Shown here in pieces: positions 3,106 through 7,586 of a stretch of DNA of 7,586 nucleotides. This stretch comes from a virus. The notes below the pieces were generated by a model, which searched no databases, was not told the DNA's origin, and worked only from the letters and a program-made list of their open reading frames with translations. The position numbers and the translations under genes were made by a program. The stretch lies in the UHGV virus genome UHGV-1434521, one strand, 5' to 3'. Position 1 is the first letter of the stretch, and the number at the start of each line of letters is the position of its first letter.

Positions 3106-3447
3106 TTAAATCACCCTGTTTGCATAATCAAGAAATTTTTGTTTTAAATCGAAAACAAAAACACTGATACGAGTAACCATAATAACGTTAACACACGCCT
3201 GAAAATGGTCAGGCAATACAGACGCCATTAAATGGGAGAAATCAGCAGGTAAACCGTTATACATGACCTCAGCAAGGTACTGCATTAAAAGCGTAACAGT
3301 TGTTGTAATTAATGCGACCAATGCAAAGGCGATTAATCCTGTTCTGGTAGCAAGTCGAGCTAAAAAACTCGCCACATAGCCAATAAACAAAGGAACAAGA
3401 CCAATAAGAAAACGCAACAATGCAGGAATACCTAATAATAAAGGCAT
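3106..3447 (-). CDS. VI: Minor coat protein pVI, 113 aa
   Basis: [13 protein letters not shown]... parallels M13 pVI MPVLLGIPLLLRF, with a conserved C-terminal VFDLKQK-like block. ATG at 3447-3445 overlaps the gIII stop (TGATG). The track's GTG at 3450 adds one residue and is less likely. Confidence 0.9.
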   Translation of the reverse strand: MPLLLGIPALLRFLIGLVPLFIGYVASFLARLATRTGLIAFALVALITTTVTLLMQYLAEVMYNGLPADFSHLMASVLPDHFQACVNVIMVTRISVFVFDLKQKFLDYANRVI

Positions 3448-4712
3448 CACTCACCCCCTTTGCGAAGCAATGAAGTTAAAGAAGTAAAGACATACCAGAA
3501 CGTAAGGCAATAAAAAACCCATGAAAGAACATCTTTAATAGTCAGTAATTTATCGCAACCAATATCAATCTGATAAACCTCTCCGGGAAATATAATAAAA
3601 TCAGAGCAGCCGTTACCATTGGGTAAATTAGGCAGCATAGCACCTTTATTTAAAAATGCTTCCCATAAAGCACCGTGAGAATCCTTTTCAATTCCCAATT
3701 CAGAATCAGCTAAAGTAGAAGCGCCATCTAATTCAGAGTCGCCCTTTCCATAACGAGAATCACCACCTGAAGGGTCAGCAAAACGGCCAGCCCCCCGCGT
3801 AAGATTGTTAATGGAATCGTCAAGACGATTTATATTATTCCTGGTTTGTTCATCGGCATTTTTTTTATCATCTGATGAAGTGTCTTTCTCCGTTAATTTA
3901 TCATGAATATCGCTGGCTATTTTGGGTGAAGCACCTTCGATCGCAGACTGAATATCACCTTTAGAAAGACTGGAACCACTAGAGCCACCGCCAGAACTAC
4001 CGCCACCGGACTCACCACCGCCAGACTCACCACCACCGGACTCACCACCGCCAGACTCACCACCGCTGGACTCACCACCGCCAGACTCACCACCACCATT
4101 TTGGGGGGTTGAGGGTTTATCAGAGGGGTCAGCTACAGCACCTGTAGGCTTCCATGTTGCAGCGCAAACAGTACCATCACCCTGACAAACAATGACACCA
4201 GTAGCCTCATATTCACAGCCGTTATAGTAGATATAGCGACCACCATCATATGAATCAACATTATTAAATACACCTTCTTCTGGCGGCTTCGCTTCACAAA
4301 TTTCTTCTGGTGTCGGGTCAGTAGGTTTTTCATCAGGAACAGAACGCTGAATATTACCAACAATATAAGCCGTTAAAGACCAATATTTATCCTTCTGCCC
4401 TGGTGAATCGCTGTAAGTACAATCGCCAGTAAAAACAAGACGGAATTCAGAATCAGGCCAGATACCCTCATAAGTTGGTTTAATCCGAGTAAATACACTC
4501 TGAGCACTGGATTTAGCACCCTGACAAGCGGAGGCCTGCATAGCAGCATCAATATAGTAAACCGTTATCTTAGAGCCATCCTGATTGGTTATTTGCTTAC
4601 TTTCAGCGTAGGCAGAACTTTGATAAGTGGATTTAGTAATGCTTTCCCATGACTCAGCATGTGAAAAAGGAGAAATGAGGACAGCGGAAAGAATTAATAT
4701 TTTCCTTCTCAT
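3447..4712 (-). CDS. III: Minor coat / adsorption protein pIII, 421 aa precursor
   Basis: Start moved to ATG 4712-4710 ([19 protein letters not shown] signal peptide); the track's upstream extension overlaps gVIII. Contains a block resembling the Ff TolA-binding N1 domain ([23 protein letters not shown]), a (GGGES)n linker, and a C-terminal anchor (GCDKLL...[14 protein letters not shown]) like M13 pIII. Confidence 0.9.
3972..4097 (-). repeat. Tandem 15-bp repeats inside gIII encoding the Gly-rich (GGGES)n linker
   Basis: Units ggactcaccaccgcc / agactcaccaccacc are repeated about 8 times on the plus strand and translate on the minus strand to [40 protein letters not shown]. Confidence 0.9.
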
Positions 4713-4730
4713 AGTAACCCGCTTTAATAA

Positions 4731-4749
4731 AGGGGCAACGAGTGCCCCT
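4731..4749 (-). terminator. Candidate rho-independent terminator between gVIII and gIII
   Basis: GC-rich 7-bp stem (aggggca / tgcccct) with 5-nt loop, followed on the transcribed strand by UUAUUAAAG. Its position matches the strong terminator after gene VIII in Ff phages. Confidence 0.55.
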
Positions 4750-4758
4750 GAGTGAAAT

Positions 4759-5001
4759 TCAAACCGCTTTTGAAGAGAATTTTTTGAAAATACGAATGGC
4801 AAGCCCAGCGCCAACCACAGCAACAACAACAGGCCATACTTTACCAATGAGATCATTTGCCTGAGTCAACAAAGCATCCATTGCCTGACCTGCATAATCA
4901 GTACCACCTGTAGCGCCTTCAGCCGCAAAAGAACTTGCAGAAATAAAAAGCGCAGTTGAAGCCAGAGCAATTTTATATTTAACAGTAGACAGAATTTTCA
5001 T
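4759..5001 (-). CDS. VIII: Major coat protein pVIII precursor (80 aa; predicted mature 54 aa)
   Basis: Signal peptide ends SFA|AEG as in M13. It has an acidic N-terminus, a hydrophobic core, and the basic tail [10 protein letters not shown], which matches the IKe/M13 C-terminus ([10 protein letters not shown] / LFKKFTSKAS) as recalled. GGAG RBS 8 nt upstream of ATG 5001-4999. Confidence 0.95.
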
Positions 5002-5533: not shown

Positions 5534-5848
5534 TTAATGCCAGCTACTGGCGTGCGAAATACGGTTGTAATCGAAAATAAAACCTTTCTCATAAATCCAT
5601 AAGGGGATTTCCGCTGGCTTGGCTTCCAGCGTTCTTATTAGCGGAACAACGTTATTAGAGTCTGGTGAATCACAATAGAAATTAATATCGATACCGAACG
5701 AAAGCAATTCTCTTCTATGGCGATAAAAAGTGTTATGAGGTAACATTTCTTTCATGTTAGCCCCTTGTTTCCAAAGTAAATAAGTTGACTGTATTTTTCT
5801 TGGCAGTTTCGTTATTTTTTCATCACTTAAAATAGCATTCTGATTCAT
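5534..5848 (-). CDS. X: pX, in-frame internal-start product of gene II (C-terminal 104 aa)
   Basis: In-frame ATG at 5848-5846 (MNQNAILSDE...) is preceded by GGGAG with a 7-nt spacer, and parallels the M13 pX start (MNIYDDSAVLD). The alternative in-frame ATG at 5896 lacks an SD. Confidence 0.5.
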   Translation of the reverse strand: MNQNAILSDEKITKLPRKIQSTYLLWKQGANMKEMLPHNTFYRHRRELLSFGIDINFYCDSPDSNNVVPLIRTLEAKPAEIPLWIYEKGFIFDYNRISHASSWH

Positions 5849-6628
5849 TTCTATTCTCCCTACATATTCAGAGAATAATTGACGTGGTGTTTTCATATTC
5901 CAGTTAGCGCCAAGCGTTAAATTTAAATCAATAAGCTCAGTTGTTCTTAATGTTAATTCAATACGTAATTTATCTTTCGTCCAGTCCAGTAACCCGGCTC
6001 GTACAAACTCTTCGGCTATCTGGTGCCCTTTTTTACCAGAAACGTGTTCATCATATTTTGAATAAAATTTCAGACTCCATCGACGGGAGTTTTTACCTAA
6101 ATAAACTGTACCGCCTTTCCCACATGCGCGACCATGGCGTGTTTTAGCTTTAAATTCGGCGGCATAAAGCCATGATCTGACATTTTCCAGCGTAGATAAT
6201 GAATACATGTAATTAATGTCAACACGTGAAATTTTATACTGACCTGCCATAACGGCTTTATAAGACGCTAAATCATGAGGAATATTCAATAAGGATAAAA
6301 TCCTGGCATAGACCGTCAACATGAGCCCTTGTATATCATCCGACCCAACAACAGAATGCCCCTGCAGAAACTTGGAAGGATTACCATCAATGTACAAATG
6401 TGTCGCTTTACCTTCGCCATTAGATCCTATCGATCGTACTTTCATCGTTGCTTCATGCGAACCGCGAACAGTCAGTCGCTTAACGGTTTCCCACTCAATT
6501 GCACCGTCAGCATCAACGCTGACAACACTCCCCGCCGGAAGCGGTTTGTGTGTGCAAGGGAAAATCCCGGTAAGCCAATCGATCACGAATAAATCCTCAA
6601 AATTGCAAAAATGACGACTTACTAACAC
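5534..6628 (-). CDS. II: Rolling-circle replication initiator pII (Phage_CRI / gene II family), 364 aa
   Basis: The C-terminal block NNVVPLIRTL matches M13 pII NNVVPLVRFI, and an internal block LQGHSVVGSDD matches LQGHNVFGTTD. It is first in the gene order. The apparent start is GTG at 6628-6626 with no obvious SD, so the start assignment is uncertain. Confidence 0.88.
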   Translation of the reverse strand: MLVSRHFCNFEDLFVIDWLTGIFPCTHKPLPAGSVVSVDADGAIEWETVKRLTVRGSHEATMKVRSIGSNGEGKATHLYIDGNPSKFLQGHSVVGSDDIQGLMLTVYARILSLLNIPHDLASYKAVMAGQYKISRVDINYMYSLSTLENVRSWLYAAEFKAKTRHGRACGKGGTVYLGKNSRRWSLKFYSKYDEHVSGKKGHQIAEEFVRAGLLDWTKDKLRIELTLRTTELIDLNLTLGANWNMKTPRQLFSEYVGRIEMNQNAILSDEKITKLPRKIQSTYLLWKQGANMKEMLPHNTFYRHRRELLSFGIDINFYCDSPDSNNVVPLIRTLEAKPAEIPLWIYEKGFIFDYNRISHASSWH

Positions 6629-6755: not shown

Positions 6756-6938
6756 ATGGCAAAGCGCACGACTTATAACGTGACGGAAGAAAGAAAAATG
6801 AAACTAGAACGACTGGCTATAAATGCCAGTGTAAAACTAGGAAAAACAATTACATGGACAGAGATTTTAGGTTATCTGATTGATAACTACTCTAAAGATG
6901 CAGCAGAAGATCTCATGTCTGCCAAACAAAAGGATTAA
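6756..6938 (+). CDS. Small ribbon-helix-helix-like DNA-binding protein (60 aa); candidate repressor or antitoxin
   Basis: MAKRTTYNVTEERKMKLERLAINASVKLGKTITWTEILGYLIDNY fits a strand / helix / G-x-T turn / helix RHH pattern (CopG/Arc-like). It is divergently transcribed from gII. Weak RBS. Confidence 0.55.
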   Translation: MAKRTTYNVTEERKMKLERLAINASVKLGKTITWTEILGYLIDNYSKDAAEDLMSAKQKD

Positions 6939-6957
6939 GTACCACGAATGGTACAAA

Positions 6958-6995
6958 CGTGCAGTATTACCTACACTGCACGTTCTTTTCTGTGC
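6958..6995 (+). terminator. Candidate rho-independent terminator after the RHH gene
   Basis: 8-bp perfect stem cgtgcagt (6958-6965) / actgcacg (6975-6982) with 9-nt loop, followed by TTCTTTTCTGTG. It is preceded by a smaller hairpin gtacca-cgaa-tggtac (6939-6954). Confidence 0.6.
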
Positions 6996-7090
6996 AAATT
7001 ATAAGCAGCAAGGACGTTAACGAAAAGAAAACTAGTATCGACATTCGAAATGTTAACTATTATTAACAAATAGAGTAATGGAAGAATATA

Positions 7091-7586
7091 ATGATCACTA
7101 TAGAAGAAGCAACATCGGTCCATGAATATTTAACAAATTACTATCAAAACTCTGATGATCCTATCTCTCCTCCGGGAATAAAAAACATAGAGCTTTTAGA
7201 GTCTGCCATAGCAAGACCTTTTATGACCATGAACAGAAAGGATGTCTATCCAGATGATTTAGATAAAGCCGCAGCTCTATTTCATGGTGTCATATCCAAC
7301 CACTGTTTCCATAATGGTAATAAAAGAACAGCACTTCTACTAACCATGTGCTTTTTAGACCGAGCTGGATATTGGCTGGATAAGTGTGATGACCTGCAAC
7401 TCTTTGAATTTACAAGAGGTGTTGCGGCACATGAGATATGTGAAAATAGAATTGATGAAATAAAAACAATCAAGGCATTTTTCCGAAGTAATTCACGGAA
7501 GAAAAAAATCACAGATGAACAATTGAGTTTTATTGCATTAAGCAGGCATCTAACCAACGCAGGTTTCAATATAGAAGACGATGGTG
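7091..7586 (+). CDS. Doc/Fic-family (death-on-curing-like) toxin-domain protein, 3'-truncated by the window edge (at least 165 aa)
   Basis: Manual translation from ATG 7091: MITIEEATSVHEYLTNYYQNSDDPISPPGIKNIELLESAIARPFMTMNRKDVYPDDLDKAAALFHGVISNHCFHNGNKRTALLLTMCFLDRAGYWL... It contains HCFHNGNKR, matching the Doc-type motif HxFx(D/N)(G/A)NKR, and the N-terminal region parallels P1 Doc as recalled. No stop before the window end, which is why it is absent from the ORF track. Confidence 0.8.
   Translation, partial: MITIEEATSVHEYLTNYYQNSDDPISPPGIKNIELLESAIARPFMTMNRKDVYPDDLDKAAALFHGVISNHCFHNGNKRTALLLTMCFLDRAGYWLDKCDDLQLFEFTRGVAAHEICENRIDEIKTIKAFFRSNSRKKKITDEQLSFIALSRHLTNAGFNIEDDG

Follow-up and report, generated by a model that had tools for sequence, protein, structure and literature searches.

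How does a filamentous phage come to carry a toxin of the Doc family without an antitoxin, and what might such a protein do? This question is raised by the last part of a 7,586-nucleotide viral sequence (UHGV virus genome UHGV-1434521; this whole stretch is the window), where a Doc-like gene follows a small gene of the phage and runs out of the window. The preliminary description of the locus, made from the sequence alone, proposed three options: pairing with the neighbouring small gene, which was taken for a ribbon-helix-helix (RHH) gene; pairing with a gene hidden downstream; or a solo Doc-domain effector, possibly for abortive infection or superinfection exclusion. The solo effector fits best, and the evidence is given below.

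A Doc-family protein with a second domain

The Doc-like ORF starts with ATG at 7091 and is open for 165 codons up to the window end without a stop. Its features in the window are:

7091..7586, + strand: two-domain Doc-family gene, codons 1–165 of 244 (translation; Pfam Fic and TIGR01550 matches; full-length copies)
7091..7471, + strand: Doc (Fic-fold) domain, residues 1–127
7301..7327, + strand: Doc-type active-site motif HCFHNGNKR, residues 71–79 (read directly from the sequence)
7472..7586, + strand: basic linker NSRKKK and start of the HicA-like domain, residues 128–165 (the domain runs on to residue 244 outside the window)

The missing part, 79 codons and the stop, lies just beyond the window. 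Full-length public copies have 244 aa and 99–100% identity (P0001, WP_020246301, WP_023893482), and the Salmonella allele is identical across all 165 window residues. The ORF could thus be completed from public copies to 244 codons, and it is longer than P1 Doc with its end outside the window, as had been noticed at first. Two profiles match it above their cut-offs, PF02661 Fic in Pfam (53.7 bits, cut-off 24, E = 3.9e-14) and TIGR01550 DOC_P1 in NCBIfam (54.3 bits, cut-off 38.65). By these profile scores, its assignment to the Doc subfamily of the Fic/Doc superfamily is far beyond chance. Consistently, the Doc-family reading first made from HCFHNGNKR is borne out, and the scenario of a motif without any Fic/Doc fold falls away.

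The Doc domain has the all-helical Doc fold, and its motif is of the HxFx(D/N)(A/G)NKR type, with Lys-Arg where Fic has Gly-Arg. Residues H71, F73, N75, G76, N77, K78 and R79 are unchanged across 40 homologues, in which 47 columns in total are invariant, motif included, and the motif is nearly invariant also in 95 distant two-domain relatives. The catalytic histidine is H71 and not 'H73' as numbered before, residue 73 being Phe. This conservation of the motif suggests that the protein may be a kinase that modifies EF-Tu at Thr382 and arrests translation. The pN/pS ratio is about 0.08–0.27 in both halves of the gene; pN is 0.06–0.24 while synonymous sites are saturated, hence selection is given as pN and pS and not as dN/dS. 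These values point to strong purifying selection on both halves. Every copy from E. coli, Salmonella, Yersinia, Erwinia, Pectobacterium and Proteus encodes the full 244 aa without interruption, which speaks against the truncated pseudogene considered earlier.

Compared with P1 Doc (phd-doc; TIGR01550; PDB 3dd7, 3k33), the Doc-like protein is about 24% identical and twice as long. The gene has no phd, other partner or operon, and it encodes a fused 117-residue C-terminal module. The module is basic (pI 9.8), has invariant residues T206 and S213, and ends with a conserved helical tail terminating in -LAKI, the C-terminal helix being at 227–242; residues 128–165 include helix 147–156 and the first strand of the HicA-like domain. 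The Lys-rich stretch described before is present, but according to the AF2 model (pLDDT 89.5, pTM 0.74) and the alignment it is not a disordered tail; it is a linker into a conserved HicA-like domain. The structure prediction suggested for the extension thus returned a folded domain. The domain has the alpha-beta-beta-beta-alpha dsRBD-like fold of HicA, and its local Foldseek matches include phage 'HicA-like toxin' models.

A profile of the C-terminal domain matched 312 proteins at E<1e-3 among 1.84e9 representatives. Throughout the matches listed from this search the domain is at the C-terminal position, and Pfam Fic was found in 87 of the 95 longer ones. One relative has an added S1 RNA-binding domain. 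Pfam HicA_toxin was reached by 2 of 95 distant relatives (best 1.6e-5), and a weak HicA match in P0222 is located within the C-terminal domain. The Pfam HicA model (PF07927) gave no match at E<=10 for the Doc-like protein or for the domain alone, and no HicA was found when the profile was searched against PDB sequences. The hhalign alignment with E. coli HicA is weak (E=0.052), and phmmer with E. coli HicA gave weak matches to proteins containing the domain, many in a consistent register with the domain start. In the weak hhalign register, the catalytic His23 of E. coli HicA is opposite Tyr167, a column that is variable across the Doc-like family.

The domain therefore differs from HicA of HicAB (PF07927; PDB 1whz, 6g26, 5yrz, 4p78, 6hpb): it has no Pfam HicA match and no HicB (no hicB-like neighbour gene was found at 14 loci), it is fused to a Doc domain, and it has the extra helical tail. 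For this protein the similarity to HicA is structural only, and judged from the aligned residues the HicA-like domain is catalytically degenerate. It probably binds rather than cleaves. Substrate targeting is just as conceivable a role for the dsRBD-like domain as sensing or inhibition. A weak CueR/MerR match (E ~0.01) and steroid-receptor matches of the domain profile among PDB sequences were taken as chance. No viral model in BFVD has both Doc and HicA-like domains. A split pair of Doc and C-terminal domain genes was also considered and rejected, because the seeming domain-only protein P0213 is a single ORF with an in-frame stop on short contigs. In the searchable literature, neither a description of a Doc–HicA-like fusion nor an experiment on any member of this two-domain Doc subfamily was found.

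The cargo slot of a dif-integrating phage

The window is a nearly complete filamentous phage (inovirus) of the CUS-1/YpfPhi type, in which the inovirus gene set pII, G5P, pVIII, pIII, pVI, Zot/pI and secretin was found. It shows 99.3% identity with the UM146 prophage (CUS-1) across 7027 nt. Phages of this type exist as a circular form of 7938 bp in Salmonella and as prophages located at dif in E. coli, whose borders are dif and a hybrid site adjoining hipA. The attP folds as a hairpin (z=-4.8). The source phage is a dif-integrating inovirus with a dif-like attP, and the gene is phage-borne as first described. The features around the Doc-like gene are:

5534..6628, − strand: phage replication initiator pII (Pfam Phage_CRI 9.1e-70, G2P_X_C 2.5e-29), divergent to the 60-aa gene
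6756..6938, + strand: gene for a 60-aa small basic protein, phage backbone (phrog_2503, E=3.6e-34; position of YpfPhi YPO2273)
6939..6992, + strand: double hairpin and T-tract, intrinsic-terminator-like (inverted repeat I6; RNA fold; conserved in Doc-less CUS-1)
7005..7090, + strand: cargo-specific upstream region of the Doc-like gene, absent from Doc-less phages, presumed promoter, with RBS GGAAG at 7080–7084
7063–7092, + strand: promoter-like TTAACA-18-TATAAT (promoter scans), overlapping the ATG of the Doc-like gene

The terminator-like hairpin had been seen at first as separating the 60-aa and Doc genes. It consists of two stems (6939–6954 and 6956–6984) followed by CTTTTCT, with a folding energy of -20.8 kcal/mol (z=-3.95; none of 200 shuffles was equally stable). 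This element ends the transcript of the 60-aa gene, and of the conserved backbone elements it is the one closest to the cargo. Just past ~7000 the alignment with CUS-1 (UM146) ends, and megablast matches of Doc-less genomes end at window positions 7000–7011. The only strong promoter consensus match in the scan, TTAACA-18-TATAAT, is unable to serve the annotated start because it overlaps the ATG. At the other side, the Doc-like gene stops 10 nt ahead of the dif-like sites of attP, and in the circle it is followed by a backbone gene of convergent orientation; a hidden downstream partner, as had been proposed, is not supported.

Among about 60 E. coli genomes carrying the phage, five have the Doc-like gene. 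The others have a 3-gene cassette instead, while the backbone core proteins are identical. These results indicate that the Doc-like gene is a rare cargo allele (moron) in a swappable slot between the backbone terminator and attP. The two-domain architecture and the cargo status, taken by themselves, can be held with high confidence. The slot, beside the attachment site of a backbone that is otherwise conserved, is at the same position as the cargo slots of other dif-integrating phages, namely ctxAB in CTXphi, orf1/orf1a in CUS-1 and YPO2271/2272 in YpfPhi (PMC4266046). Those slots hold a secreted toxin or unknown ORFs, whereas the cargo here is a Doc-family enzyme.

The two-domain family recurs on mobile elements and in defence hotspots. 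Inoviruses of Yersinia, Proteus and Vibrio contain relatives, and P4-like satellites of E. coli and Klebsiella have them between psu and int. Others were found on 17 viral contigs of 4.9–57 kb in IMG/VR, in tailed prophages and at plain chromosomal sites. In Pectobacterium and Proteus the gene and attP are present alone beside dif. In contrast to P1 phd-doc, a plasmid-prophage addiction operon, the Doc-like gene is carried singly, as cargo of inoviruses and satellites. The psu-int locus is listed in Rousset 2022 (Table S1) as 'Fic WP_073464939'. At P4 defence loci, 6 of 8 randomly picked unknown genes gave phage protection (PMC13586616), and defence genes are enriched in variable loci of filamentous prophages (PMC11630473). 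In PADLOC, core-only Fic matches to the candidate systems PDC-S23, PDC-M59B, PDC-S05 and PDC-S04 were obtained, and no full-length model for the Doc-like protein. For some chromosomal contexts, such as those in Achromobacter and Acinetobacter, a defence island is not evident.

Partners, antidotes and other roles

The Doc-like gene has no antitoxin gene. No cognate gene of the kind that accompanies doc (Phd/YefM, AbrB, Xre, YhfG and others) is immediately upstream, and no conserved small ORF was found up- or downstream at 14 loci from 8 genera, so the earlier statement that a Phd-like upstream partner is missing holds.

One alternative is a non-lethal kinase for lysogenic conversion, which would regulate host or phage by tuning translation or phage production and would not act in defence, comparable to Pf kinase modules and PfiAT. 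Filamentous phages carry regulatory TA/kinase modules that control virion production (PMC11341870, PMC13048266), CUS-1 and YpfPhi alter host fitness in vivo (PMC4266046), and a solo gene without an antidote would be most tolerable if weakly toxic. However, every catalytic motif residue of toxic Doc is kept, and a function tied to inovirus biology is unlikely because P4 satellites and tailed prophages have members of the family too, as have plain chromosomal sites. A purely regulatory role is considered unlikely.

It is rather improbable that the gene serves addiction or stabilisation. In that case the fused protein, or a trans-acting factor of host or phage, would make a one-gene post-segregational killer, by which cells that lose the replicative form or prophage are penalised, in the way that phd-doc works for P1. 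Doc was first found as a plasmid-prophage addiction toxin. The phage is known as a 7.9-kb episome in Salmonella, and in Pectobacterium and Proteus the module of Doc-like gene and attP is maintained at dif by itself. YpfPhi-type phages are also reported to be unstable episomes (PMC4266046). Addiction, however, requires an unstable antidote supplied by the element itself, which encodes none; most phages of the same type lack the gene, and it also occurs in P4 hotspots of chromosomes, for which a stabilising role would be unusual.

The 60-aa protein was examined as antitoxin and autoregulator of the Doc-like toxin in a non-canonical type II pair. The two genes are neighbours on one strand with 152 nt between them, the small protein is basic and its model may have a strand and two-helix layout, and in a Yersinia inovirus whose Doc-like gene is 85% identical, a related gene of 67 aa is at the same place. 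But the identical 60-aa protein (WP_001335098) occurs in Doc-less CUS-1-type prophages, and at least 1000 contigs have exactly this sequence, whereas the Doc cluster is on 28. The two genes are kept apart by a strong terminator and by the junction of backbone and cargo, the 63-aa gene at that place in a Proteus inovirus is unrelated, and the P4-satellite, Erwinia, Pectobacterium, Acinetobacter and Achromobacter copies are without such a neighbour. The RHH fold is unproven: Pfam and NCBIfam gave no match, the AF2 monomer (pLDDT 78.9) has coil at 1–10 and helices at 11–28 and 34–59, and Foldseek against PDB gave nothing at E<=0.001, with the RHH regulator Reg576 only at E=7. YPO2273, the positional counterpart in YpfPhi, was called RstR-like (PMC4266046). 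Such a pair is therefore very unlikely, and the 60-aa protein, first thought of as the Doc partner, is better regarded as a putative phage regulator than as a dedicated antitoxin.

That a small RNA or micro-ORF (type I/III-like) went unrecognised as the antidote has a slight chance at most. Such antidotes are easy to miss, an antisense 95-codon ORF at 7282–7569 overlaps the Doc-like gene, and the gap contains short ORFs. The gap from 6939 to 7090 had been said to hold ORFs of 7–18 codons only, but with GTG and TTG starts there are ORFs of 35 codons (6959–7066) and 46 codons (6880–7020). Neither is conserved at other loci of the family, and the 35-codon GTG ORF, which would be the candidate, begins within the terminator stem and spans the junction of backbone and cargo. 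No Rfam match above noise and no tandem repeats were found at the locus. Finally, a decaying or inactive remnant, as the ORF cut by the window, a Vibrio phage copy annotated as two ORFs and the in-frame stop in one metagenomic relative might suggest, is hardly conceivable given the intact copies in six genera, the low pN at saturated synonymous sites and the 47 invariant columns.

A proposed self-contained Doc enzyme

The preferred reading is a single-polypeptide Doc enzyme of 244 residues, carried as solo cargo, which would be a self-restrained kinase for abortive infection or exclusion. Taken whole, it is held tentatively, at somewhat short of even chances. The C-terminal module would hold the Doc domain harmless in cis instead of a separate antitoxin, and the HicA-like domain may be the RNA/ribosome-binding or sensing part. 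Upon a trigger, for example infection by another phage, the Doc domain would phosphorylate a translation component, which by analogy with P1 Doc may be EF-Tu. Translation would then halt and the competing phage would be excluded. This would protect the lysogen and, with it, the resident filamentous phage.

Because the protein is of the Doc family, has no antitoxin, is swappable cargo and occurs in defence hotspots, it is a good candidate for a one-gene anti-phage system. More speculatively, and possible rather than probable, it may represent an undescribed one-gene immune system, in which the C-terminal domain, derived from HicA and binding RNA or the ribosome, keeps the Doc kinase of the same protein inactive until infection makes the kinase fire and translation stop. 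Two toxin folds would then have been recombined into toxin and sensor, Xer-dependent filamentous phages, P4 satellites and prophages would have distributed the gene, and the protein would be for Doc what CapRel and other fused toxin-antitoxin sensors are for their toxins.

Two known systems are close to this proposal. SoFic is likewise a one-gene protein of the Fic superfamily, for which a role in abortive infection has been proposed or shown, with EF-Tu as its reported target (bioRxiv 10.64898/2026.07.09.737422, PMC12249575). SoFic is an AMPylase as described there, whereas the Doc-like protein has the kinase-type NKR motif of Doc and different accessory domains; the SoFic model is absent among the PADLOC matches of the Doc-like protein, which is thus not classed as SoFic. 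In fused toxin-antitoxins of the CapRel(SJ46) type, a toxin and a restraining and sensing C-terminal domain are in one prophage-encoded polypeptide, and the toxin is released by a phage protein. The same logic is proposed for the Doc-like protein, in which cis-inhibition and triggering are hypothetical and the toxin and sensor folds are unrelated to those of CapRel.

In databases the proteins are called 'type II toxin-antitoxin system death-on-curing family toxin', a label that masks a distinct, widespread and strongly conserved two-domain architecture without antitoxin. The gene is short and easily cloned, therefore the hypothesis is directly testable. If the protein is a self-contained defence or exclusion factor, a Doc-kinase-based system would be added to the anti-phage repertoire, and it would be a clean model of how a toxin can be kept in check in cis through a domain taken over from a different toxin family. 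Small dif-integrating phages of E. coli, Salmonella, Yersinia and Proteus would then carry immunity cargo where CTXphi has cholera toxin, and inoviruses would be vehicles for abortive-infection genes in Enterobacteria.

The filamentous phage and its cargo slot

Every large ORF on the minus strand of the window is an inovirus gene, encoding the secretin pIV, Zot-like pI, pVI, pIII, pVIII, the G5P ssDNA-binding protein and the replication initiator pII. A circular Salmonella enterica "plasmid" of 7938 bp was 99.2–99.75% identical to the window, E. coli prophages at dif beside hipA were 99.3% identical, and the CUS-1-type prophage of E. coli UM146 matched the first 7000 nt of the window. CUS-1/YpfPhi phages have a conserved core and differing unknown ORFs at their attachment-site ends (PMC4266046). 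From these identities and this layout, the window is a small filamentous phage genome minus about 350 nt, and the Salmonella record is clearly its replicative form.

Several backbone features were also recorded. Two small genes at the other attP-proximal end (9–242 and 360–668, both minus) match phrog_5435 and phrog_4115 and occupy the position of the YpfPhi ORFs YPO2280a and YPO2281; the 77-aa protein of this pair has a CxxC...CxxC zinc-ribbon-like pattern and a weak zf-FPG_IleRS match (E=0.004). The attachment protein pIII (3447–4856, minus) contains a Gly/Ser-rich GGGES repeat linker at about 3917–4099, and because its annotated length varies by strain (406–434 aa), repeat-length polymorphism is suggested. 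For pII (5534–6628) the longest ORF has 364 aa from a GTG start, and for the secretin (738–2096) it has 452 aa, against RefSeq calls of 350 and 421 aa; each gene probably begins at a start codon further downstream. IS1 interrupts pII (region matching 5534–6628) in prophage copies of E. coli MB51 and PEC422, which are therefore presumably immobilised.

Features around the Doc-like gene (L-numbers are public loci compared)
6756–6938, plus strand: 60-aa gene
6939–6954 and 6956–6984, plus strand: double stem, then a T-tract (-20.8 kcal/mol, z=-3.95)
7005 onward: cargo slot, filled elsewhere by a three-gene cassette (L003 10528–11733; L084 5028–6233)
7091, plus strand: ATG of the Doc-like gene
Just beyond the window end (L002 11337–11430; also L001 2035–2130): attP pair of inverted dif-like sites

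Phages with and without the Doc-like gene cease to be similar just past the terminator, at ~7000–7011. Of 5426 complete E. coli genomes, about 60 carry the phage and only five of these have the Doc-like gene; in the remaining carriers the slot is filled by the three-gene cassette, and the pII and G5P proteins of the backbone are identical. This alternative cassette, found in most E. coli carriers, encodes a 140-aa protein, an ECs_2282-family zinc-binding protein and a 159-aa protein.

Relatives of the Doc-like gene fill the corresponding slot in a Yersinia enterocolitica inovirus, where one with 85% identity follows a related 67-aa gene, in a Proteus inovirus, whose replication protein is of a different (Rep_trans) type and whose 63-aa gene is unrelated, and in Tubulavirales phages of Vibrio cyclitrophicus (48% identity). 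P4-like satellites of Klebsiella and E. coli carry homologues of about 50% identity between psu and integrase, and 17 full-length relatives come from IMG/VR viral contigs of 4.9–57 kb. The P4 psu-int hotspot holds anti-phage systems, and the E. coli satellite copy is listed as an untested "Fic" locus in Table S1 (Rousset 2022). In a 2026 study, six of eight randomly chosen unknown genes of P4 defence loci protected against phages (PMC13586616), and in a Vibrio study the variable loci of filamentous prophages were enriched in defence genes (PMC11630473). The Doc-like gene is thus swappable cargo beside the attachment site of an inovirus, and its family recurs on phages, satellites and islands.

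In Pectobacterium (L034 5514–6838) and Proteus (L020 4477–5926), the gene and attP pair stand alone beside the chromosomal dif with no phage genes. A lone copy of this kind, roughly 1.3 kb long, may be a miniature dif-integrated element or all that is left of a filamentous prophage.

Domain architecture of the Doc-like protein

The frame opened by ATG 7091 runs for 165 codons to the window end. Public copies have 244 codons, and the Salmonella allele equals the window protein across all 165 residues, so the proposed extension past the length of P1 Doc was real. The assignment to the Doc family was borne out by matches to Pfam Fic/DOC (E=3.9e-14, over the gathering score) and NCBIfam TIGR01550 DOC_P1 (E=1.4e-14, over cut-off). 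The motif HCFHNGNKR spans residues 71–79, which places the catalytic histidine at H71, not at H73 as first described. By profile, motif and fold the protein is a Doc subfamily member, and its sequence predicts an enzyme domain with the catalytic motif complete.

The Lys-rich extension is more than a tail. Forty homologues of 236–251 aa, from Enterobacterales, Pasteurellaceae, Vibrionaceae, Acinetobacter, Achromobacter, Desulfovibrio and others, align along their full length with 47 invariant columns in both halves, including G184, G187, Y191, Y195, R200, T206, D212, S213, F216, Y217 and the C-terminal L241-A242. The AlphaFold2 model from this alignment (pLDDT 89.5, pTM 0.74) has Doc helices to about residue 134, an alpha-beta-beta-beta-alpha unit at 147–202 and three short helices, and the extension is a folded C-terminal domain (CTD). 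Its pI is 9.8 versus 5.2 for the Doc half.

No HicA signal was found at sequence level in the Doc-like protein. Searching 1.84 billion representative proteins with a profile built from the last 117 residues retrieved 312 at E<1e-3. Among the matches listed, the HicA-fold domain with its tail was C-terminal in every hit; of the 95 longer ones scanned, 87 carry Pfam Fic, with a nearly invariant HxFxxGNKR motif, and two reached Pfam HicA_toxin (best 1.6e-5). The weak HicA match in homologue P0222 falls within the CTD. Where E. coli HicA has its catalytic His, the aligned column varies, and therefore the CTD is, on its sequence, probably a binder rather than an RNase. We are highly confident of the architecture and of the cargo status.

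Some distant relatives differ in layout (P0301, P0205–P0340; L027–L030). Many of these Doc-CTD members have 100–170 unannotated N-terminal residues, giving a 340–410-aa class, and one carries an extra N-terminal S1 RNA-binding domain. In Vibrio phage 10N.286.55.E8_PE003 (L026 6616–7348) the annotation divides the homologue into two ORFs, and the match begins only at residue 35; a frameshift may split the N-terminus, or it may have been called wrongly. One metagenomic lineage has an in-frame stop exactly between the two halves on several contigs, which could reflect a pseudogene, recoding or an alternative genetic code. An apparent stand-alone CTD protein was rejected, being one ORF interrupted by an in-frame stop.

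Proposed function and the search for a partner gene

Our reading as a whole, function included, is tentative. The protein would be a self-restrained toxin, held in check in cis. By analogy with P1 Doc it may block translation by phosphorylation, with EF-Tu as the putative target, and the HicA-like module could inhibit the toxin in cis, act as a sensor or direct it to ribosomes or RNA. Biologically, the protein would exclude competing phages. The same domains could instead form a regulatory, non-lethal kinase, which we consider unlikely, and a one-gene addiction device appears less likely still.

A toxin-antitoxin pair with the 60-aa protein, proposed in the preliminary description, is very improbable. 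The 60-aa ORF and the intergenic hairpins were confirmed, and the suspected terminator folds stably. The gene is phage backbone: WP_001335098, identical to its product, occurs in Doc-less prophages, and at least 1000 contigs contain the exact sequence versus 28 for the Doc cluster. The product, a putative ribbon-helix-helix (RHH) protein, matched no Pfam or NCBIfam profile; its AF2 model is a 10-residue coil and two helices, with no significant match in a fold search.

A downstream partner had also been suspected. The Doc-like gene stops 10 nt before attP, whose sites are GGTTCGCACAATGACGTTATGCTAAAA (+) and GGTGCGCATAATGTACGACTCGTTATGTTGAAA (-); next comes chromosomal sequence (hipA) in prophages and a convergent backbone gene in the circular form; no gene is hidden there. 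The attP folds as an ssDNA hairpin (-22.5 kcal/mol, z=-4.8), as does CTXphi-type attP, and the other prophage end is an intact dif.

An unseen RNA or micro-ORF antidote is a shade less probable than pairing with the 60-aa protein. The upstream gap, described as holding only ORFs of 7–18 codons, has 35- and 46-codon ORFs if GTG/TTG starts are allowed; neither is conserved in other loci. No conserved small ORF accompanies the gene in 14 loci from eight genera, and neither an Rfam family nor a tandem repeat is present. The Doc-like gene is encoded without any antitoxin. That it is a dead remnant is scarcely credible; in both halves synonymous change is saturated and pN is only 0.06–0.24.

A sigma-70 promoter-like TTAACA-18 nt-TATAAT (7063–7092; 11/12 matches) has its -10 box over ATG 7091, so that transcription would begin 3' of the annotated, conserved start codon; the promoter search found none better in the cargo-specific upstream region.

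The gene differs from phd-doc type II systems, which are defined by a cognate antitoxin gene. The likeness of its second domain to HicA is at fold level, and by sequence it is not a HicA member. It is not SoFic: its motif is of the Doc type, and PADLOC gave no match to a SoFic model. No paper on the Doc and HicA-like architecture, or test of any member, was found in the searchable literature, and databases label these proteins simply as TA toxin. The Doc-like gene is a concrete candidate, inexpensive to test, for a new one-gene defence that filamentous phages carry.
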